Below, piece after piece: positions 6,313-54,800 of a stretch of DNA of 64,000 nt. The DNA is from Monosiga brevicollis MX1 (Eukaryota): NCBI RefSeq assembly GCF_000002865.3, contig NW_001865050.1, positions 66,429-130,428 on the forward strand. Direction: 5' to 3'. The stretch's first letter is position 1, and every line of letters starts with the position of its first letter. Below the pieces are notes generated by a model. That model did no database searches, was not told the DNA's origin, and was given only the letters and a program-made list of their open reading frames with translations. A program made the translations under genes and the position numbers.

Positions 6313-7350
6313 GGCGCTGGAACGCCAGGCCCAGGCGGCGGGAGCTGAGACAAATTGCCTGACACCACTTGATCAGCCCGAGAGCTGGCCCATGCCGGGG
6401 CGCGAAGAATAAGAGCAGGGTCTCTTGCTTGCACCTTTCCCAGCTCAAGCGGCACAGTTCAAGCAGGACATGCTGTGTTAGGATGAGAATTGCATTCAGC
6501 AAGGCCCTCTCCCGGCGCTGCCAAAACTCAACTCAGCGCACCAGACCAGAGGTTTGTTCGCAAAAAAAAAAAAAAAAAAAAAATGAAACGGTCATGATAC
6601 CGTTACCCAAAAAACTTGTTTCAACATGTTTATAGGCGCTCGCTCTCGTGGTCTTTGCCGACAAGAAGTTGTTTTTAATACGTTAACAAATCTTCATCTT
6701 CTCCACATAATCGTTCTTTAACCGAGTTTAGTTTGATTTTCTTCCAAGTTTTTCGCGCCACTGGGACTGAGCTGAGTGCCGGGGCGAGCATGCACCGCGA
6801 GCGAAGTGGAATATTTGCTCTTTACGATCCGCAGCTTGGCCGTTTCTACTTCCAATGCTTGTATTCCAGTGCTGCAGACTGGTCTTGACAGCGCTGGTTT
6901 TGTTGTTGTGTTGTTTTTTTTATTTTTTTTTTGCATGTTCAACGTCTTCGTTGTGCTACGTCAGGAAGCGACGATGTCCTATGAATCGCGCGAGGATCCC
7001 ATTTCAACTCTGGTGAAACCCGGGCATAACTGCTTCATACGATGGCAAGCGAGTGGAAACACCCAAAGCCGTAACAACTGAAGTCTCTCGAGCCAACAAG
7101 GGTTGAAAAGTCTAAGAGATGATGCTTTACGGTCCTGAATTTATAACTCGAGGTTCTTAGGCCATGCGGGTCAAAAAGAGAAACAGCGAGGGCGAGAGAG
7201 AGCGCGAGAGAGAGGGACAGAGACAGAGGGAGAGCAAGGGCAGCGCAACGCGAATGACACGTTTTCTTATACATTACTGCAACTATTCAATATTATTACT
7301 TATTAATACGGGTGTTCCAAGGGCACCAGGGTCGAGTGTGGGGGGTTCTC

Positions 7351-8983
7351 TCAACCCGATATCACTGGACTCGTCCAGAGGGGCAAGCTTCCCTGATGGG
7401 CGGGCGCAAGCCCTTGACTGGCAGCGCTTGAGAACAAGGTTGACTGCCAATCTAAGCTCTGCGTGGCCTCATAGCGGCATGGCGTCTTCGAGGGTCCAGT
7501 CATGGCAAAGGCGATGCCGTGACTCAAGGGCACAGTCGTGGCTGTCGATGAGGGCAGCTCATTGTCCATCCAGCAGGTTCGTCCGTGTGTCATCTCATCA
7601 GCCAGCGCGAAGTCTTCGTCGGATGCTTGCGTGGTCTCCATTAGAAAAGAATGGGTTTCCATGCCGGCGCATTCCTGGACCTCCCACGGCATGCGACCTC
7701 GTGCCGTGACGCTTCGTGGGCTGTCTTCCAGTCTGGACGATGTGAAGTGCGGACCGGTCGGGCCGGGGTCAACTCGGAGCTGTTCCTCACGGCTGGAGCT
7801 TGTCTCCAGCAGAACCGACAGCAGGGGTGCCGTAGCCGGCATGAGCACGAGCATGGGGCCACTATTTGTGTTGACAAACTGCGGCACGAGATGACCGGAT
7901 TCCAAAATGTCGGCCAGCTGAGGCAACTTGTTTAGCTGCTCCGCGGTGGCCTGCGCTTGATTCACATCGCCTGTGTTGTAATAGCACAGAGAGTTTGCAC
8001 AATGAGCAGGTGGCCATTCCAAGTGATGCTCGGAATGCATCAACAAGTCTAGCCTTCCTTGTCGCTGCCGCCCCACCGTATGAAAGACCAAATGAATAAA
8101 GTACAAGAAGAGCAGACGCACCGCACGTGGCCACACCAGCAAAGGCCGAGGCATTGCTAGCCGTTGACAGCTCTTGCGATGAGTCTTGGTCCTACCGGAA
8201 AAAGCATCAACAGGAGAAAGAGTTAGAGGCGCAAATGCAAACAGAATCATCCATCCGCCCAATTTGAAGCCAGCTTGCTTGCCACATACCTGAGAAATTT
8301 CATCGAGCTCCGAGTACATGGTGACAGTTTGCTCAGCCAATGCAACAGCTCGAGTAAGGTGCATGCGCAGCAGCTGAAGCGTCAGACCTTTGACATTGAA
8401 CAATCAAGGAGGGAGCAAACTTTGGGTGAGTGGCCGGGCCCTGCTAATTTTACCGAAAAAAAAAAAAAAAAATCAAGCTAAGCTGTACTAGGGAGACAAC
8501 ATACGTGGCAGATGTTCTATGCAGCTCAAGACTCGGCAGCGAGCGCATTTGTGCTGTGCAGGCGTCTCAAAGTGGAACGCGTATGGATCGCAATGACCTA
8601 CATCACCAGCCCACCAGCATCGAGGAAGAATAAGGGCACAATGTCGGAAGCTGCTCGGATGCGCCTGTCGACGACTCAAGTAGTCGCCCAGAGGCGCCTT
8701 CATCATCGCCAACGTGACCATTCATACCGCTGCAAGGTCGCCGCAGTCGCTGCTTGGTGCGTGACATTGCTTCGCGCAGGCGTATGAGCATCTCGGTCGA
8801 GGTTCCGTCGGTCTCAAAGCGGCTGCCCTCGCGGTGGATCATCTCGATCACTTGCTTGATGTGTTTGTAGAGAACGCCATAACATGACTTGCAGTAGCGC
8901 TTGCCTGCCTTGGCTGTGTCTTGACACACCAGGCAGTTCAAGTTGGGGGGCTGCCCTTCGCTTTGCACTGCGTTCTTGATCAT
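7351..8983 (-). CDS. Hypothetical protein with an N-terminal double C4 zinc finger resembling a nuclear-receptor DBD, followed by a helix and a low-complexity C-terminus
   Basis: Exons 8983-8728, 8597-8505 and 8387-8290 plus downstream exons join in frame at GT-AG sites to give CLVCQDTAKAGKRYCKSCYG...RRPCSGHCDPYAFHFETPAQHKCARCRVLSC. The last exon is the long ORF ending at 7351. The start codon is uncertain. Confidence 0.6.
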
Positions 8984-9633
8984 GCTGGCAAAGTCGGATC
9001 CACATTTAACGAAATGTACCTGGCTTGTGGGTTTATCGTAGATGGAAAAAAAAATGACCAATCGTTGAGTGGGGATGTACTCAAGCCCCTTTTCACAGGA
9101 ACACAACCACCTACCGCCCTTAGTAGATAAGTTGATAAACGGTGACGCGACTTGAATTATCACCACAACCACCCTGCAAAACGCAATCACAGGCAACTGC
9201 TACGTCAATTCTACGAGAAGGCAGGTCGGGTGCCGCGCCGGTTTTGTGTCGAAGCCGACGAGACAGTTTGATTTTGTCACGTAGACCACCATGTCAACGC
9301 AAGATACGGTAGGCGTGATGCAAAAGAAAACAAACAATGACTTTCACTTCACAACTTGAGGAATTTTTGACACACTTTAATCGTTTCTTTCCTAAGGTAG
9401 TCGGTTACAAGTTCCATTCCCATGACTCGCGACCCCAAATCCCATGCCGAGGTTTGGACCTTGCTGCTTCTGCGTCTTTTCGAGGGCAAGAGCCGTCATT
9501 GCTCGATTGAAAAAACGCACGTTGTACGACGCTATCTTCGCACCCCCAGTACCCTAAACTATCCCATGGATGGATATGCTTCGTCGGACTCGCAGTCGCA
9601 CAGATTTTGAGAGACCATAGTAATAATAATTAT

Positions 9634-12243
9634 TCACACGAGGCTTCGGAACGAAGAACACAGTAGCACAGATGCAGATGGTAGGAGACAGGCAGGGCAG
9701 TGGGAATCACCATCACCAGATCCCCAAGCACACCAGCCAGGTTTCATAGCATAATCGCTGGAGGAGCCCCACAGCAAAACAGAAAAGGTACTTTGGGACA
9801 CTCCCTCGCTGCTATCCTCCGCCAACCTCACGAAAGACCAATCGAACGCCAATGTGCTGGTAATGTGCCTATCAGGTGCAATCGCAAGCCACATGTGAGC
9901 TTGGCACTCCTCCTTTCCAGTTTCATCATCAAGCGGCGTCAGGCTCATCAAAGCATCACAACGTACGCTCATCAACACAGGACGGCTGTCACGTTGCAAG
10001 AGCTTTTGCTTGCCATCGGGTGTCACCAACACAAGGCCCCCCTCCGTACTCTCCGGCAATCCCAGCTTGGCAATTAGATGCTTACACACGTGTCCGGCGG
10101 TGGCAGAGAAAGGAAGACGCAGCTCACGCTTCACCATGTCATGGTGGCGGGTGCGAGCGGCTATAAAGACGACAAGTGAGCCCATGCCAGCGGTATCTGT
10201 TCTCAGCTCTGAAATGAGGGATTTGCTGGCCGCCGATCTAGCCTGCTCAGCCTCAGCTGGTAGAGCAGGCATGACACGAATGGCTTGCTTGAGCTGTCCC
10301 AGGGGAAAGACGTGAGCCTCATCTTCTTTCTGGCGGCACTCCTTGATGACTGCTGGAAGAAGCTGGGCTTCATTCCAAACCGCGCTCAAGCTGCCGCACA
10401 CCGAGAACTGATGAGGTCATGTGGCAAACAGCACAGCATATTGCGACGCCTTCAAAGCATGCAGATGAACAGATTCACAAAATACATGTTGGACGGCGAT
10501 CCTTCAGCTGCTCAAGGCACGATACCACGTCACACCTGCGCGTACCTGCGTTGTGCCTCGGCGGCCACATTGGCCATTTGACGCTTAGAGGCACCCTCGG
10601 CGCCCAGCGCTGCACGAGCTTCATATTGCAGCTGGCTCGCCAAATTGCCGGCCTGCAACCATAAGCGACTATATTGCTGGTGGGCATCGGGATCCAGCGT
10701 TTGCCAACAAAGTCGTTCAAACCAGGCGGCGGGCATAACTAGCTGATCGCGATTCTCGGAATGAGCTTTGTGCGTCGTTTCAGTCAAAAACTCGCTGCTC
10801 GGTGACACGAGCACCAGAGCTGAAGCCTGTGGCGACAACTCCCAGACATTGTCGGCATACAAGCGCCACTGGGGGGCGGCCGAGGCCGGGATGCCCAAGA
10901 GTGCTAGCGCAGCTGGTGCCTGCTCCACGATACTCTTGAGCAGCTCGTGTCCGTGTGTCGCTGTGCCCTCGCGTCCCCGTTCCGTGTTCTGACCTGCACC
11001 GCGGAGATAGGCCCATTCATCGCGGGAGATGTTGTGCGCGGTCCGTAGCCTACAGGATTGTTCGCACAAAACGATGACGCAACGGGGTGTGAGCCCGTGG
11101 TCGTGCAGTACCGCAGAACAGGCGGGGAGGGGGCATGTGAGGTTGAAAGTCGAGCGCGGGCACTACATTCACCTAACGAGCGGCAACACGGCCGCTTGGT
11201 GCTTCAGCACCGTTACTTGGAGGCCACCGACAGTGGAGCGCGGCACAAGCACGGAGAGGTACAGGCCTTCCAGTTGTGGTTCAATGGCCCCACTGGCAAA
11301 TGTCACAAGGTCTGATAGACTGGACAGAAGACGAGCAGGCGTGGATGCAGCATCCGCGCCTCCCGGTGTACTACTGACGGCAAGTCCTTCAGTGTCCGAC
11401 CAACTCAGCGCATTGCTGATGCCAGACCATTCACTCTGTGGGAGGCTTTGCACCGCGGTGATAATCAGGGCGCCGTTGTCCTCCTTGATGGGCTCGTGAT
11501 ACAAGAGGCCAAGATCGAGGGTATTGAACAGTCCTTGCAGGCAGGCAACGGCTTCGGCCGCACGCTTTCGGGCTTGCAACGAGGCCACGTCTTCGGTGAG
11601 ATCCGCCATGCCTCGTGAAGCACCCCAATCAAAGCTAAGCTGTTGTATCCACTGCAATGCACAAGTAGGACGGTCAGCGCGGCGAGCCGAAAAGATTTGA
11701 TGGTGACAAGAGTGGAAGCGCTGAGACCCACCTGAACAAGGGCGGCCGTCTCTTGCGGAGAGACAGAAGCCTCGATGGGCACAACGGGCGGTGTGCCATT
11801 GATGGTAAGGACGCGCGAGGGCTGAGCAGGGTCGAATGCTACCACGGCCAGGTGCAAGCCGCGCTTGACCTGGCGCACGGGCTTCAAACCTGAGCCAAAT
11901 TTGGCCATCAGTTTGGCCTTGGCCTTGGAGGGTGTGGCTGGCACTCCTGAAGCTCCAAAGGAGCCATCGTCATTTTCGACACCAATTGACATGAGTTGGT
12001 CCTGAATGGCAGCCAGGCTAGTCCGTAGGCGAGTGGTGCGATAAGGACGATCATCAAGCTGTCGCCAAGACGACGGGACGATGAAGGGGGGTTGTGCCTT
12101 CACAGCTGGACCCACGCCCTTGATATTGAGAGAGGCCACTCGTATGTAACAAGGAGCGCCCTGAAATGCGAGGAGTGAAAGGAGGCATGAGTCACGTTGA
12201 GATGAATGGGCGCTTATCTGTTCCATCCCCTGCAAAAGCTGCT

Positions 12244-12284
<41 letters not shown>

Positions 12285-13879
12285 TCTTCAAGACGTAAAA
12301 GCCTGAACCCACCTCGACCAGTCCTTCCAAGATGTAGGATTCCACTACGCTGGGAATGAAGACATGCTGGCTGTCTGCAAAGGTGGGATCGGTACTCCAC
12401 TCGACCTTGTAGCGGGTCACTACGGCCTGGCCGTGGTCGCGCACGTGACCGATTTGCACGCGGATCGAGGTGGGCGAATGCACACTCAATCTGACCAGGC
12501 TGGGCGCCGCTGGAACACCTGAGCAGAGGAAACGTCGATTAACAAAGCGACGGGGGCCATGACACTGGCGCGAGCAAACGCTTGTCCAACGATGCACATG
12601 TGGGGGTCATGCCAAGTCAAAAGGCTCGAGGTGGCGTACCGGCTTTGCGATAGTTACTGTCAAACTTTCGGAAAAGCAGCTCAGCGCGCGTGCACATTTT
12701 GTTCTTGAGGTCGTACTCTTGGTAGAGTCGATCATTCCCCTCTTGAATCGCGGTGAGAATTTTGCGAACCTCAATCTACCATATCACCGCGCCAGACGAC
12801 GCCGCGTGAGGCCAGGAACTGTGTCACGTCCCAGGTGTACGGCTGCCAAAAACATGGTGGGCTGTGTGCACTGGGATACAAAGGCGGTTGGGGCACCGTA
12901 CCTGCTTGGCTCGTAGAATCACCTCGAGGCGCGTCTTGCGTGCTTTGGCATCGGTATCTGAGAAGCCGAACGACACGTCAGAAAGGTGCGGGGTGCACGG
13001 TCCACAAAGATCGCTGGGCTAGGACATACATTTGTCGTTCTCGATCCCGCCGTATAATTGGAGAAGTCGGACTGCACCTCGCAGGTTAAGCATGACGGCC
13101 AAATCAAGAAGAGTGTGTTCGTCATCATCCCGCCTAGCAAAGATCCAACGGCAGCCGTTGGAACCCCCCAAAGGAACATGCATGAAGTGGAGCACAGGGA
13201 GAGCGCGGGGCGCGGGGCGACAGGGTTGGTGGCCGGGCATGGCGAGTGGGATCACAAGGTAACGCACGAGTTGACGTCGATAATTTCACGCTTGAGAAGA
13301 TCGTTGAGTTTCTCCACCTGGTTGTTTTCCACAGCATGGATGGCATCCGCAATGTGCAGACGGAGTTCGTCATCCGTGGCCGTGCTTTTGGGGCTATCGC
13401 TGCGCATAAAAGCCTTAAGCATCTGTACCCGGGAGAGCATCAAGTGGTGAGGGCAAGCCTTGTTGGGGTGGTAGGAGAATGTCATGGAGCGATTCGGGTT
13501 CATGCACACACGACGGACAAGCACCATAGCCGCGTACTTTGGTGGAGGTGGTGCGGGAGTACCGCCGATTGCTCTGCAGGCTGCTTGAGGAGGCGTGGGA
13601 GGGCGTGAGCTTCGGGGTGGCACGCTGGGTGTGCTGTTCGTCAGAGAAGCGCTGCGTTGGGGTCTCGGGCAGCCGTCGCTGACGTCGCTCGACGACTTCT
13701 TGAAACTTGGCTTGTTGGTCGAGGCACAGCTCATTCACCTCGGCAAGGTTGCTGACACCAACGTGAAGAAAGTGCTCAAATTCCACGGGGGTGGAGATTT
13801 CTGGGTGTCGATCAGGCTCTTGTGGAGCGCGCGCAATGGCGTGGGCGCGATCAAATGGCCGGGCATCGGTGTTTGACAT
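9634..13879 (-). CDS. ANKFN1: ANKFN1/wide-awake/nmf9-family protein (CRIB + ankyrin + FN3 + RA-like domain)
   Basis: CRIB motif EISTPVEFEHFLHVG; ankyrin-like AIHAVENNQ... and TLLDLAVMLN; FN3 (VTRYKVEWS...YILEGL...YIRVASLNIKGVG) followed by PSSWR; family segments VKRGLHL and LQGLFNTLDLGLLYHEPI; C-terminal RA-like RLPFSATAGHVCKHLIAKLGL. The 3' end is approximate. Confidence 0.8.
12246..12280. repeat. Intronic (GT)n microsatellite
   Basis: Perfect GT dinucleotide run inside an ANKFN1 intron. Confidence 0.95.
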
Positions 13880-14842
13880 TATGGTATGCGAGAAGCGGTG
13901 GAGGTGGAATGGGCACGGCAAGGGCAGATGCAAAGCGCAGAGGCAAGAAGGCCGGCGTCGGCGGGCAGGCGGGCAGGCGGCCGCCGCAAATGCGCGGTTG
14001 CACCTGGCGAAGCACGTTCCTGACTGGCGAAGAAGCGTGATGGTTCACATACATGAGGCGGCGGCGAGAGCGAGAGCCATCATGTGGAAAGGCAAGAGCA
14101 CAGGCGAAAATCATTCAAGTCGGGGCGTGTGCGCAAGTCTTTACAAGTCTTGATTGTCCCGGTCGCCCAGATGCCATCAAATGGTCTCGCCAATGTTTTT
14201 TTTTTTTTAACAAAATAGGGCAACACGGCAGAGGAGGATCGACTAACCTTATCGAGTATTACAGCGTGACGCCAGACGGCCGAACCACTCAGGGCTGCCC
14301 GGTAATCAGGCGCTCAATGAAGGACCGCACACAGCGCTCAGGGCAGCCGAGGCGCCCTCAAGTGCCGGCGATGTTGACGCCTAAAATCGAAATGCCAGCG
14401 ATAAGCGAGGGGAGCCGATGTGTGGTTGCAGAAGTCAAAATAGTTGAGACAACACTGCACCACCAACACCACCATCAAAAGAGCTTGGAACGCTGCATGC
14501 AGGCATGGACAGCTGCGCTGTTGTAGCCACCACGGGCTCTAAGGCTTCAAGGGCTTTTGCACGGGTGCCATTGAAGATCTTCTGGCGATCCTACATCCAG
14601 TCGTACCTCAAGTCAAGCTGGCTGTCTTTGCTTGGAGCTTGTGGAAAGGCCTCGGCGTACAAGCAGGTCACTGAAGCTGGAACAAGGCCCAATCAACGCA
14701 GAGAGAATCCCCCCCAGGTAGATTGCCAGTATCCCGCAAACCGTGCCACACGACGAGGGGGCTGCCAAACACACACACACAGACGGCGACAGTACACACA
14801 CATCAACAGTCAAAAAAAAAAAAATTTCACTGATGATGATTC

Positions 14843-47920: not shown

Positions 47921-48886
47921 GGCTCAAGATCCCCCCTCAGAGCGCTGGCGTCGTCGTCGTCGTCGGAGCGTGTGTGTGCGTGAGAGAGAGACGAGAAATG
48001 AGAGATCGCGCACAAAAGTCCACAGCAGTAGCTTTACATTTACAAACACTATTTCACTTTATTGACATTAGCAGAACTGCATTTACCTCATTTTTGGCTA
48101 CAAGAAGTCATTGCTGTAAAACACATCAAACATCAACAAATGGTTCGAGTGCAACGTCTTACACACTGTTCATCAACAAAGCCATGGAATGTCAGCAATT
48201 CCATTGAGTAGCAATTATGTCAGATAAAATGATTCGATCGCCAACTTTGGTTGCGCATTCCAGCACTTGGGGATGGACCATTGTGGAGCTTTTGTAGCAA
48301 TAAACAGACTTTCTGCCGAAAATATTATTTTTTCTTATATTATACCTTGTAAATAACTAGAGTTATCGTTGTAGAGTATCAGGTTAATGTTGTCTCGAAG
48401 TGGAGTCGTCGGTCAAGTGCGACGTCATGGCATTGTCCTCTTCTACCGCTGCGTCTTCTCACACCGTTGCTTCAACAAGTCGGTAATAATTAAGGTTACT
48501 TGGCTTTATAAATCTGCATTTACTGGAACATTTACGACAACTTCTCTCATTTCCGCGACACTGCCTCAAGTGGTCGCACAGTGATCATCTCTCAAGAATT
48601 ATCCGACTTGGTGACGCGGAACGGCAGCGCCCTCACGGCCGAGGCAGAACGTTGCCTCTGGAATTGCATTTGCAAAACAGCAGGTTATCACGTTGAGTTG
48701 CCAAAACCGTCACGCCTGTTGGTTCTGGTCCACCTCTGGCGTATTGCGAGTGCCACTTGTGCTTTTGTTGTTGCTCTGCTTGTACCAGCGCGCCGCGCCA
48801 CGTCGAGAGCACCTTTGAGCCCCGCCTTGGCTCTTCTGCAACCGCAACCGCCTTTCTCCAGTCTTCCTGAGCTCTCAACAAGCACC

Positions 48887-51211
48887 ATGGACTCGGATGA
48901 CGACTTGGTCTCCTCGGGCACTGAGGTATGGTCTTTTTGCATGGGCCATCTGCGCGTGTGGGAGAGTGTGCACTGTCTGTGTGCGGATTTTGCCGGATTT
49001 TGCTTGTTTGGAAAGCGCTGCGTCCCCTTCGGCTCCCGACGGCCCCTGGATGATGTACCATCTGGTTTAACTTGTGCGCTGCATGCCATGCCTCCCCAGA
49101 TGGACGACGAGTACGAGTCGGACCTGGGGTCGGACGAAGGCGACGGTGACGAAGCCTTGGCCATGGATTCAGAGACAGAAGAGGTGCACGAGGCCAAGGT
49201 CGATGTCTTGACTCCCACCGAGCTCCTCAGCGCTCAATTCCAAGCCATTGAGGAAGTCAATTCCATCTTCCAAATCCCGGCCGCCACGGCCCGTCACCTC
49301 CTCGCGCATTTCAACTGGAACAAAGAGCGCTTGCTGGAACGGTCAGTCAAGTTTTGTTTTGCGTCTCGCTTCTCGACCCTTTTGCGCTGCTTTTACAGCG
49401 CATGAGTGTCATGCGATGGCTCGCTCAAAAGCTCAAATTTTCTTTCATTTGTCTTTCTCCTGCCTCCTTCGCCAGATACTACAGTGATGGCGACCCCGAC
49501 CGTCTGTATGCGGAGGCACACTGTGTCAAGCCAGAAAACATCCAGACCAATTTGGTGACCGAATGTGGCATTTGCTGCGGGGACATTCAACCCGATGAAT
49601 CGGTGCAGTTACCCTGTGGCCATCCCTTTTGCCAATCATGCTGGGCCGCCTATTTTCGCGAGAAGGTCATGAATCAAGGCACTACGGTATGCTCTTTCTT
49701 GCCCAACCTCCTCTCTGTCGCCTCGGCATTTGCTCAATTCTTCTGTTGGCCTACAGGATATTGCTTGCATGGAGTACACTTGTGATGTTTTGGTGGATGA
49801 ATACACCGTATCGTACGTTGTCGCCTTCCTATTTGACAGAAAACCTTACCCCTCCCGTAACCCTAGGGCCTTTGCCAATGTTCCTTTGGACCACACCATT
49901 GCCTTTGATGGCTTTCTACTTTTTCAGCAATTAGTCATTGTGCTTGTGCGTGTTCATTTTTGATGGGGTGCGAGCAGAAAGTTGTTGAAGGATGATCAGG
50001 AGACGCTGGCTCGATACAATTACTTGGTGGCCAAGGCATTCGTCAAGCACAACAAGAAAATTCAATGGTGCCCAGCCGTCAATTGCACCTATGCATTGCG
50101 TTTAGAACTTCCGCGGGCTCAGCCCGTCACCTGCAAATGTGGTACCACATTCTGCTTCAAGTGTCAGCAAGAATGGCACGCCCCTCTCAAGTATGTGCCC
50201 CAAACCCTCCCGTCTAGCTTGCCCGTTTCCTCTTGCCGGCTTCGTGTTATCAGCAACCATCGAGTCTGACGCTTGAACTTGGCCGGCTGTAGGTGCACCA
50301 TGCTGGGCCGGTGGCTCAAAAAATGTGCTGACGACTCGGAAACCTCCAACTGGCTCTCCTCGCATACCAAGGAATGCCCCAAGTGCCATGCCACCATTGA
50401 GAAGAATGGCGGCTGCAACCACATGACGTGCCAGGAGTGTCGTCATGAGTTTTGCTGGCAATGCATGGGCGACTGGGCCCCCCACGGCTCATCGTGGTAT
50501 CAGTGCAACCGATTTGACGAGCAAGATGCCAAGGACGCCCGTGCCCGTGCCCTCGACTCGCGTGCCTCCCTTGATCGCTACCTCTTTTACTTTCATCGAT
50601 TTGCCAATCACGACCACAGCAGCAAGCTTGAACATAAGCTGTGGCAGCTGGTCGAGCACAAGCAGCGCGAGATGCAAAAGGCCAACTTTACCTGGATCGA
50701 AGTGCAGGTGGGCATTGCTTCAATCTTTATTTTTTTTTTTTCTCCTGTTTGTCCCACCCCTCTTTGTTCGTCCTTCTCTATGATATTTGTACTTGTCCAA
50801 GTCTCGACACCCCGAATCCGCCCAGCTACGATCCTCATGTTGATGGCTTTGTTTCTTTCTTCCTCTTGGTCTTAGTTCCTGGGCAAGGCAGTCGAGTCAC
50901 TGCAACGAGCTCGCAGCGTGCTCAAGTTCACTTATGTCTTTGCTTACTACCTGGCCAAAAACAACCAGTGTGAGATTTTCGAGTCCAACCAGAGAGACTT
51001 GGAAATGGCCACCGAACGCCTTTCTGGTTTCCTCGAGGGCGAAGCCACCGACATTGACCTGAGCAAGCTGCGTCTGGAAGTCATGGACCTCAGCAACTAT
51101 TGTGATCGCCGCTACGACGTGCTGTTGGACCACGTGCAAGAAGGCTACGAAAAGGGCTTGTGGGAGTACAACGATGAAGACATGCGGACCGCCATGGCCA
51201 CCGAGTCGTAA
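48887..51211 (+). CDS. ARIH1: Ariadne-family RBR E3 ubiquitin ligase
   Basis: Acidic N-terminus; [21 protein letters not shown]1 CGICC...[20 protein letters not shown]...[11 protein letters not shown]...WHAP; RING2 [22 protein letters not shown]; Ariadne domain RYLFY..RF.NH, FE.NQ.DLE.ATE.LS. Confidence 0.95.
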
Positions 51212-51816: not shown

Positions 51817-54800
51817 CTACTCGTTCATCCACGACAGATCCTCACCAACGACATCCTCCTCGATATCATCATCGTCTGACATGTTGTCAATGTCCTCCCG
51901 CAACTCCTGCTTGCTCCTACGCGCCAAAACAAGAGGGATGCAGGACAACCAAATGAGAATTTGTCACGGTGCTTCAAGCACGGTTATTTGTACCAAAACG
52001 CAACGCGGGACAAAAAAGCGGAAGCGTGGATCGTACTTTTTCGTGGGGAGTTCGCGAGCTAAAGCGGGGGCATCTGCCGCCGCACGTTTAGCACGAGCAG
52101 CTTTCTTGTCGGCCCCTGCCGCTTCTTTGCCAGCTGCACCCTTTTTGGTGACGACCGGCTCGTCCGATTGCAAATAGCGCTGCTCTGCCTGTTGCTGCAA
52201 AAGCTGTCGGCGTTGCTGGACGATCTTTTGCCAAGACGTGCGGTACTTGAGCAGGGGGCTGCCATTGGAGGAGCGAAGCTGCTGCTCCAGCGTCAAAATT
52301 TGTTGTGTGTCCTTGGGGCTGAACGTAACATTTTGACGGGAGCGAGTGACCCAGGCCTTGTTCTCCTCAAGCTTGCTGACGAGTTGGCTCAGGGTCTGGC
52401 GTACTTCGCCATTGCGAGCTTTTTTCATGCATCGCTTGAGCGCCACCTGGCAGGGCACAATCAGCTCTGGAAATCCGATCTTGGTTGCGTGAATAGCGAA
52501 AAAGTCCAAGAGTACCTCTTGCATCTGCTCGACCACAGCCTTCTGAAACTGTTGCGTGCCAAGATTGGTCTTTGAGACCTTGAGGAGCACATCCATGTTC
52601 AGGGGCCGACCCGTCGAAGGCTTGGGCTTGCGGCCCATGTCGGAAGACTCCAAAACGTCCATGGCTGCAAAAGCCACGGGCACAAACACGCCCGACCACT
52701 CTGACAGCAGGTTGAGGGTTTTGAGGCAATGGAAGCGCAAGGGAAAGTAGCGGGAAGTCGGAATCAGGTGTACGACACCCAGCGTCACTTGGACCAAAGG
52801 ATAGACCAGGGAGGACATGATGTTGTCCTGACGCTGCTGAGGCGCCAGGTCTTCCAGGTGCCGACCCAGCACCTGGGCCCACAGGCGGAGGCAGTGCACA
52901 AAAGGCCAGCAGTACACTTGCTGCAGATTTTCACGTTTCTTGTGCACAATGGCATTGCGAAGATGCACGGCCAGCTGGCGAATGTACACAAAGGCGTGCT
53001 TGTACGCCAGTTGTGTATTGAGTGTGTAGAGCTCACAAACTGCGATGAGTTCCACCAAACAAAGCCAACAATATGAGCAGGATTTCGAAGCTTAGACCTG
53101 TCTGAAGCGAGGCACACTTGTGGTGTGCACATACCGGCATTGCGCATGAGCGAGATTTTGGGCAGGGAAATGACGGTGGTAAAGCGCGCCGACTTGACAA
53201 AGCTCAAGTACACGCCCTGGAAGCGAGTTGCCGTGCAAAACACGTGTGGTTAGGGTCAAAAAAAGAATAATAATTAAAAAAATAAAAAATAAAATAAAAA
53301 ATAAAATAAAATAAAGCCCGACGCAATCAAAAATAGGGGCGAGCCGTCCAAGCACACCTTGAGCGCAATTTCCATAAAGCTGTCATCCGATACCAGGATG
53401 AGGGCACGCATGCAGAGAAAAGTGACCACTGTCAGCTTTTCGTTACCAGCCGTGAAGAGCGGGAAGAACTGCTTTAGCAGCTGGCGGGCGAGCTTGGGAA
53501 AACCTGAGCGGGGAAACAAGACAGGCCACATCAATCGTGCGCATGTGGCAAAACTGTTTTTTGCGTGGGAGGCAAGCACCAGGGTTGGGCACGCGTACAG
53601 GCAATGTAGTGCATGAAGGGCACCAGCATCTGGAGAATGGCGCCGAGAGCGGCATGGTCTTGCGACTGAGGCAACAAGTGCAGAATGCCTTGGCAAAAGT
53701 ACTTGACATGTGATCTGACGAGGCGCCAGTTCTTGCGCTGCGCCGGCACACGGCTGTACAAGAGTCAAAAAGGAAGCAGAGCATTATCGAAAGGTATGAT
53801 TAGCTGGCGGGGTTTTGGGTAGTCGGAGTAGACATGAAGAGTCGGGGCACCACGTACTGTTGGGCTTTGCCCTTGGCGGGCAGGAGGCGATCGAGCATGC
53901 GCGGGACCTCAGCGAGCGCAAGCTGGACCATTTCGCTGTAGGCTACCAGAAGAGAACGATCGAAAACATAAGCGAAGAGGCAACGAATGGCAAGCCATGA
54001 CCTCAGCGCAAGAGATAGGCGAGGAGTGCAGCAGATAACGCAAACAAAAAAGGGGCCAGCCGAAACCCACCGCGGCTCGAGCTGATGGTGTAACGGAGAG
54101 TGACAGGGGGACCCTTCGTGTCGGCGTCGGCGTTGTCGGCCTCAAAGCCATACGCAGCTGCAAGGAAGCCTTGAATCACGTGCTTCAGGGCTCCAGCGGG
54201 TTTCTAGGCACGGCATCCGAATGATGGTTGACAACATGAGTTTGCCGTGTGTATCATATCACTCTGCGCACCCCAAGTCGCACATCGCCACACATGCGCG
54301 TGCGCACAAACATGGTTTTGCTCTGCTTGTGTTTTGGTTTTGCTTTGCTCATCTGTTTGTCTGTCAACGTAATAGGTTACGCACCGTTTTCAAGAGCTTG
54401 CCCCAGGCACGGATTTTCTTGACCGTGAGGGTTTCGCGGTCCGCAAGTGAGCGCCCGGACTTGGACTTTTTCGAGGATGAGCCCTCCTCGTCGCTATCAT
54501 CCAGAGGCTCAGCCTCATCATCCATCGCCTCTTCATCGTCTTCATCGTCGTCCTCACCAAAATTGAGGAGGTTTTGATCTTCGCTGTCCAAAAAGTCAAA
54601 AAACTCGGGCTGCGTCTCTTTGAGGCGCTGCAGTTGCGCCCGGTGCTGCTTGACCTCATCCTCAAGCTTATCCAAGCCAGCATCATCTGCATCCTCCCCC
54701 TCTTCGTCATCGTCATCGGCACCATCGGCCGTGTCGTCATCAGCCTCTTCTTCGTCGTCTTCGCCGGCCCGGTCGAGTGCGGCCAAGGCCCGATCATTGG

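Follow-up and report, generated by a model that had tools for sequence, protein, structure and literature searches.

A separately transcribed choanoflagellate gene for a cysteine-rich domain with predicted likeness to the nuclear receptor DNA-binding domain

The gene described here lies on the minus strand of the window, by which we mean the whole stretch of 64,000 nucleotides of the Monosiga brevicollis MX1 genome that was analysed (contig NW_001865050.1; G+C ~54%). It gives rise to a separate transcript of five exons (~9054-7123) with a product of 378 residues, which we interpret as a choanoflagellate two-zinc DNA-binding factor resembling the DNA-binding domain (DBD) of nuclear receptors (NRs), and probably as a divergent relative of the zf-C4 family; we assign this reading as a whole a probability of roughly 0.55. 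The binding of two zinc ions, the binding of DNA and the homology to zf-C4 are properties that we infer for the protein. Homology to zf-C4 is plausible and, taken by itself, falls near an even chance, on the lower side of it.

The origin of nuclear receptors is an old open question. To our knowledge, the NR ligand-binding domain occurs in animals only, and M. brevicollis has long been cited as being without NR parts. The initial annotation of this DNA took the DBD to be animal-specific as well, a premise that is dated, as Lopez-Escardo et al. 2019 (PMC6792448) report choanoflagellate proteins in which Pfam zf-C4 occurs by itself and no ligand-binding domain accompanies it; PMC8942334 and PMC8092661 cite that study to the same effect. 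We know of no other report of the DBD outside animals; this one is brief and made at the level of Pfam, and presents no characterised protein. As described there, those proteins are like the present family in carrying an NR-DBD-type domain, a predicted one in the case of the family, without a hormone_receptor domain, and unlike it in being detected by Pfam (PMC6792448). That the NR DBD is older than animals is already in print, and the present family is one that escapes the Pfam model.

We found no literature naming MONBRDRAFT_8870, the public model that covers the gene, and among papers on nuclear receptors and choanoflagellates no title or abstract opening pointed to this family. The analysis provides a concrete gene, expressed and with its exons correctly joined, in a choanoflagellate whose genome is sequenced; Choanoeca flexa and Barroeca monosierra have orthologues of it. 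The zinc content, the structure and the DNA-binding specificity of the M. brevicollis product are directly measurable.

Transcript and cysteine pattern

Matches to the region were present in 13 sequencing-run sets, four of which (X1, X3, X5 and X8) were compared over positions 7000-14100. In X1 and X8 the region is colinear and intron joints are absent, these two being either DNA or unspliced. The X3 and X5 sets, which come from one study, contain 14 joints in two contigs each, all of them CT..AC (GT-AG on the minus strand). None of the 13 sets is recorded as RNA, and for X3 and X5 an RNA origin was guessed from joints and tails; cDNA would account for the 14 canonical joints, for the loose oligo-T end at 9605 and for a sequencing adapter at 9054. 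The evidence from X3 and X5 consists of assembled contigs, to which minor isoforms are invisible.

For the cysteine-rich gene, the X3 contig (1435 nt) and the X5 contig (1447 nt) reach from 9053/9054 to 7123 and each include four joints, and the adapter forms a loose end past 9054. One of these joints (8595/8726, cut +2) skips 130 bases and coincides exactly, in both sets, with the GT-AG intron at 8727-8598 proposed in the initial annotation, which had also considered that the two exons might not be joined in vivo. The contigs, which are of RNA type, join them precisely there. The intron is thus real and exon 2 is part of the transcript: the gene is transcribed and is spliced at 8727-8598.

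The transcript (7123..9054, minus strand, as are all of its features) begins its coding sequence in exon 1, the coding part of which (8728..8983) starts at Met1 and, by translation, ends one base into the Gly86 codon. The 85 residues from Met1 to Ser85 comprise finger 1, a long helix 1, a helical-hairpin spacer and Cys84. Putative zinc module 1 (8882..8935) is formed by Cys17, Cys20, Cys31 and Cys34 in the arrangement C-x2-C-x10-C-x2-C, and is invariant in seven of seven aligned sequences. Residues 35-83 (8735..8881) follow, containing the helix-1 motif (YGVLYKHIK after Cys34) and, according to the models and the alignment, a helix-loop-helix insert. Intron 1 (8598..8727; 130 nt, GTATGA...TGTAG, phase 1) falls between Cys84 and Cys88, at a position where the metagenome locus L003 also has an intron. 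Exon 2 (8505..8597), which is present in the contigs and absent from the public model, contributes Cys88, Cys103, Cys106 and Cys111, and with them putative zinc module 2 as well as the beginning of helix 3. The exon is conserved in the homologues P0005, P0008, P0010, P0004, L003 and L004.

Downstream of intron 2 (8388..8504; 117 nt, GT-AG, joint 8385/8503, cut +2), exon 3 (8290..8387) encodes the long conserved helix that comes after the zinc domain (LQLLRMHLTRAVALAEQT...), as delimited by the contigs and the helices of the models. Intron 3 (8192..8289; 98 nt) and intron 4 (7971..8121; 151 nt), both GT-AG, flank exon 4 (8122..8191), a Ser/Ala-rich linker, all three as defined by the X3 and X5 contigs. 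The coding part of exon 5 (7351..7970; contigs and translation) ends with the stop codon at 7353-7351.

Joined in this way, exons 8983-8728 and 8597-8505 translate in every detail as the initial annotation had described, with nine cysteines in the pattern it gave (Cys17, 20, 31, 34, 84, 88, 103, 106 and 111). The spacing in M. brevicollis is C-x2-C-x10-C-x2-C, a 49-residue spacer, and C-x3-C-x14-C-x2-C-x4-C. What had been noted as a helical spacer of ~50 residues is 49 residues long, and it is predicted to form a helix-loop-helix; the departures from NR spacing that had been pointed out (x10, x3/x14 and the long insert) are likewise observed. The concern that automated annotation could miss the domain proved justified, since the public model skips exon 2, and this is why the domain has been invisible in M. 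brevicollis so far.

A candidate upstream open reading frame (8814-9005, minus strand) starts at an out-of-frame AUG at 9005, has 63 codons and overlaps the main start at 8983. By eye, the main AUG has the stronger context of the two, and the upstream frame may have a regulatory role. Simple repeats are found at 7183-7243, 8445-8485 and 12238-12287, among them a GA/CT-rich tract in the 3' UTR of the cysteine-rich gene and a T-run of ~16 nt in intron 2.

Distribution and conservation of the family

A phmmer search with exon 1 as the query against 1.84 billion cluster representatives returned nine proteins at E ≤ 0.001, seven of them at E ≤ 1e-10. They consist of the chimeric model itself, seven clear relatives (E 8e-8 to 7e-24, 44-68% identity) and a weak one. 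P0011 (2360 aa, E 1e-5, 25% identity, seven stretches in the helical part) is probably a spurious match. The named relatives come from Choanoeca flexa (504 aa) and Barroeca monosierra (1143 aa), both Craspedida, and the others are environmental; orthologues of the kind that the initial annotation had suggested looking for in unicellular holozoans are thus found in two choanoflagellates. No animal, fungal or other named-group protein was found by phmmer among the 1.84 billion representatives at E ≤ 0.001. Judged by these sequence searches, the family is restricted so far to craspedid choanoflagellates and environmental sequences. Word-indexed protein searches returned the fused model and P0004 (the 'longer' search) and P0008 and P0004 (the P0005 region), and tblastn of the domain against the 64-kb window found the gene itself alone, with no second copy.

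A metagenome scan added four further loci (L001-L004). In L001, L002 and L004 the entire domain is contained in a single uninterrupted ORF without introns, so that the DNA itself confirms the reading frame across the junction. L003 belongs to a close relative of C. flexa, and its introns match two of those of M. brevicollis in position. Several environmental gene calls stop directly after Cys5-x-Gly, as would be expected from an intron there. L001, L002 and L004 represent one environmental lineage, in which Ser replaces Cys9, the C-x3-C spacing becomes C-x5-C, and the poly-Gln tails are very long.

The initial annotation had allowed that the cysteines might not be conserved in orthologues. Alignment A3 has four full domains, 35-60% identical overall, among which Cys1-8 do not vary; in the relatives these cysteines are kept wherever sequence covers them. 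Cys9 is replaced by Ser in P0008, P0012 and L004 (one lineage), and the spacing between Cys5 and Cys6 ranges from x3 to x6 across the family. In helix 1 (CKSCYGVLYKHIK), thirteen consecutive residues are invariant in seven of seven rows of alignment A1, with L004 having Met for Val. Conservation is low beyond the domain and the following helix, save for a short C-terminal motif. This motif, LVPQ(F/Y)VNTxSGPxxVLMP (7835-7893, minus strand), is common to M. brevicollis, C. flexa and L003; no matching known family was found for it, and it may be a partner-binding motif.

Predicted fold and relation to nuclear receptors

Searches with sequence profiles gave no match between the domain and NRs. Pfam zf-C4 (PF00105) matched none of seven domain sequences at E ≤ 10, and by the Pfam definition the domain thus lies outside zf-C4. 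In Pfam searches it is absent as well from P0001, P0002, two ORFs of the window, P0005, P0008, P0010, the L004 ORF and exon 5, the tail of which matched no Pfam family. Hormone_recep had no Pfam match for any query, including the C-terminal 260 residues, for which no family was returned, and the full-length homologues; the initial annotation had recognised no ligand-binding domain either. NR DBDs are numerous in the PDB, yet no NR chain was retrieved from it at E ≤ 10 by the HMMER profiles built for the family (finger 1 plus spacer, and whole domain). The PDB matches of these profiles were de novo helical proteins, a FYVE knuckle (that of Vps27, E 0.68) and AIP, with E between 0.15 and 7.6. 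The best Pfam match, DZR_2 (PF18912), covered finger 1 alone at 16.8 bits (E 0.0063), below its gathering score of 27 bits, and the ESM Atlas gave noise-level neighbours only (best feature score 0.80), with zf-C4 not among them.

These results bear on the main competing explanation, that of a lineage-specific zinc domain which acquired two treble-clef-type CxxC modules by convergence, a serious contender even if we consider it somewhat improbable on balance. The likeness to NRs would then be an analogy or a bias of AlphaFold2, which may favour a familiar fold when given CxxC patterns, and the domain could be one that binds DNA, RNA or protein. The lack of a zf-C4 link by every sequence method used favours convergence, as do the cysteine spacings and the 49-residue linker, which are unlike those of NR DBDs, and the weak, sub-threshold matches to a double zinc ribbon (E 0.006) and the FYVE knuckle (E 0.68). 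On the other hand, the motifs at Cys1-2, after Cys4 and at Cys7-9 (CxxCR-hydrophobic-x2-C) appear NR-like, and the predicted structures point in the same direction.

Two AlphaFold2 models were built, on the C. flexa and B. monosierra domains, which stand in for the M. brevicollis protein; both derive from one shallow alignment of seven sequences and are not independent. Model 1 (C. flexa domain; pLDDT 81.4, pTM 0.73) contains a beta-hairpin knuckle and helices 20-39, 50-63, 92-102 and 104-133, of which the first two belong to the spacer and the last is the post-domain helix. In model 2 (B. monosierra domain, with 36% identity to model 1; pLDDT 83.6, pTM 0.77), the spacer helices are 22-41 and 52-64, and the post-domain helix is 109-127. 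In the models the two C4 modules may pack with helices 1 and 3 as in NR DBDs, the best PDB matches by two aligners, with Z scores of 4.8-6.8 and no Foldseek match at E ≤ 0.001.

When model 1 was compared with the PDB by Foldseek, NR DBDs made up 31 of the 37 matches listed, including all those listed through rank 21 (E 0.66-3.4, probability ≤0.77, TM (target) to 0.66). For model 2 they made up 29 of the 36 matches listed. Neither model had a match at E ≤ 0.001, the best values being 0.66 and 0.34, respectively.

VIA-align, which is independent of Foldseek, was run against 48,161 representative chains; by the program's own warning, a Z score below 8, as all of those given here are, may reflect just a common arrangement. 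For model 1, NR DBDs occupy 11 of the 20 best rows, among them 3dzu_A (Z 5.9), 8ifo_A (Z 5.7, 72/76 residues, rmsd 2.8 Å, 18% identity), 7xv9_A (Z 5.5, 71/80 residues) and 3g6t_B (Z 5.2, 68/72 residues, 22% identity), and unrelated helical chains equal their scores (7nur_A, 5.9; 7oqe_K, 5.7). For model 2, NR DBDs are found at ranks 1-9 and in 11 of the 12 best rows (Z 4.8-5.7), with non-NR rows at 4.4 or less except for one at 4.9. Re-alignment of the Foldseek matches of model 1 places NR DBDs at ranks 1-47 of the best 50 (Z 3.6-6.8), with the highest score for the thyroid-receptor (TR) DBD and its extension helix (3m9e_E, Z 6.8, 96/102 residues aligned). No LIM, GATA, RING, PHD or FYVE chain appears among the best 50 of the 48,161 for either model. 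The possibility that an unrelated zinc finger would fit better than zf-C4 had also been raised in the initial annotation; among the matches listed, NR DBDs lead. As modelled, the predicted fold most resembles the NR DBD.

A canonical NR DBD has the arrangement C-x2-C-x13-C-x2-C, a linker of ~15-17 residues, and C-x5-C-x9-C-x2-C. Both it and the choanoflagellate domain have eight conserved cysteines in two C4 modules, zinc ligation being predicted for the latter, and in both a helix begins at the second CxxC of each module, here according to the models. A ninth, dispensable cysteine is located four residues past Cys8 in both, and is Ser in one choanoflagellate lineage. The modelled core superposes on 68-76 of 72-80 residues of NR DBDs (2.6-3.1 Å, Z 4.8-5.9), and the extension helix of the TR DBD resembles the long helix predicted after the choanoflagellate domain.

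There are differences as well. Finger 1 has x10 where NR DBDs have x13, finger 2 has x3-6/x14 where they have x5/x9, and their linker of ~15-17 residues compares with 49 residues and an extra helix here. The NR DBD sequence profile does not match the choanoflagellate family, and the family was not found in animals. A full nuclear receptor also has a ligand-binding domain, which the choanoflagellate protein lacks. The hairpin insert between the fingers is, in the models, the hallmark of the family. DZR, FYVE, GATA and LIM domains share CxxC knuckle pairs with the choanoflagellate domain but are absent among the best 50 structure rows per model, and their sequence scores are far below curated cut-offs.

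For convergence, the structural comparison cuts both ways. Z scores of 5-7 and Foldseek E values of at least 0.3 are in the range that the tools call inconclusive, yet about eleven NR DBD-bearing representatives of the 48,161 all come near the top for both models, covering 90-95% of the core DBD at 2.6-3.1 Å and 13-25% identity, and other zinc-finger classes are absent among the best 50 rows listed. The initial annotation had proposed either a distant relative of the NR DBD or a convergent finger; the predicted fold, nearest to NR DBDs, suits the former, as does the reported occurrence of Pfam zf-C4 in choanoflagellates (PMC6792448), whereas homology is without support from sequence.

If the protein is an NR-DBD-like two-zinc DNA-binding factor, as we prefer, residues ~15-115 would hold two zinc ions, one by way of Cys17, 20, 31 and 34 and the other by way of Cys84, 88, 103 and 106. 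Each module would consist of a zinc knuckle and then a helix starting from the second CxxC, as in the NR DBD, with a finger-1 loop shorter than in NR DBDs and a finger-2 loop that is longer. A helix-loop-helix of ~35-40 residues would be inserted after helix 1, the presumed equivalent of the recognition helix, and before finger 2, and a long C-terminal helix would follow the core, similar to the extension helix of the TR DBD. The invariant helix 1 (CKSCYGVLYKHIK) would read DNA, and its invariance suggests half-site binding. The product would then be a ligand-independent, sequence-specific DNA-binding transcription factor, the rest of which has no recognisable domain. Basic patches of the (P)AKR type precede the domain in several homologues, and Gln-rich tails occur in homologues; together with the invariant helix 1, these features would fit a nuclear DNA-binding transcription factor.

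More tentative is the proposal of a genuine sister relationship, with deep divergence, between the family and the animal NR DBD; we see the odds as leaning slightly against it. Were it true, the common ancestor of animals and choanoflagellates would already have used the two-finger NR DBD as a transcription factor independent of ligand, and fusion of such a domain to the ligand-binding domain would have come later, in animals. As for the inter-finger hairpin, either choanoflagellates would have gained it, or it would be ancestral and animals would have lost it; M. brevicollis would possess an NR part that is masked by a chimeric gene model.

The public gene model and neighbouring genes

Exon 1 matches residues 805-889 of MONBRDRAFT_8870, a model of 1151 aa, at 100% identity. 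All 13 pieces of this model map to the minus strand of the window, from 13879 to 7354. The model joins 10548 to 8986, by means of an invented intron of 1561 nt (10547-8987), and 8726 to 8385, and omits two exons of the upstream gene as well as exon 2 of the cysteine-rich gene. Since X3 and X5 contain two separate transcripts, the public model fuses two genes: MONBRDRAFT_8870 is a chimera of an ANK-FN3 gene and the cysteine-rich gene. The upstream-gene contig runs from 14025 to 9605, where it has the oligo-T loose end, which on the minus strand would correspond to a poly(A) tail. The last upstream exons (9966-10390 and 9605-9867) encode a weakly Ras-association-like segment (RA_2, E 0.022) followed by a stop codon of their own. 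Correction of MONBRDRAFT_8870 thus reveals two things that the model hides: the cysteine-rich domain, and the Ras-association-like C-terminus with which the ANK-FN3 gene next to it really ends.

It is very improbable that the region instead encodes the C-terminal part of a 1151-aa ANK-FN3 protein, without exon 2 and with no complete two-finger domain. The deposited model does have the joints that such a protein would need (10548 to 8986, and 8726 to 8385), but neither is present in any contig examined. The upstream transcript terminates by a stop codon and oligo-T at 9605, the cysteine-rich transcript begins near 9054 and includes exon 2, and the C. flexa and B. monosierra homologues are stand-alone proteins with the exon-2 sequence; in addition, a search for proteins of 633-2015 aa with the shared region returned the model alone. 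Least credible of all is that the cysteine pattern arose by chance in a non-functional or fast-evolving ORF: although the protein is mostly poorly conserved outside the domain and without a Pfam family there, the 36-68% identity across species, the invariant cysteines and the invariant 13-residue helix argue against chance, as does the fact that the gene is transcribed and spliced.

The upstream gene (9605-14025, minus strand) has an ankyrin-like N-terminus and an FN3 match at E 3.9e-5, an architecture presumably reminiscent of animal ANKFN1; no literature pairing 'Ankfn1' with 'Monosiga' was found. Other genes of the window, conserved in eukaryotes, include a Noc2 family member (51964-53091, minus strand; E 3.8e-100) and one with an ARIH1-type UBA-like domain (48512-49405, plus strand; E 1.3e-15).
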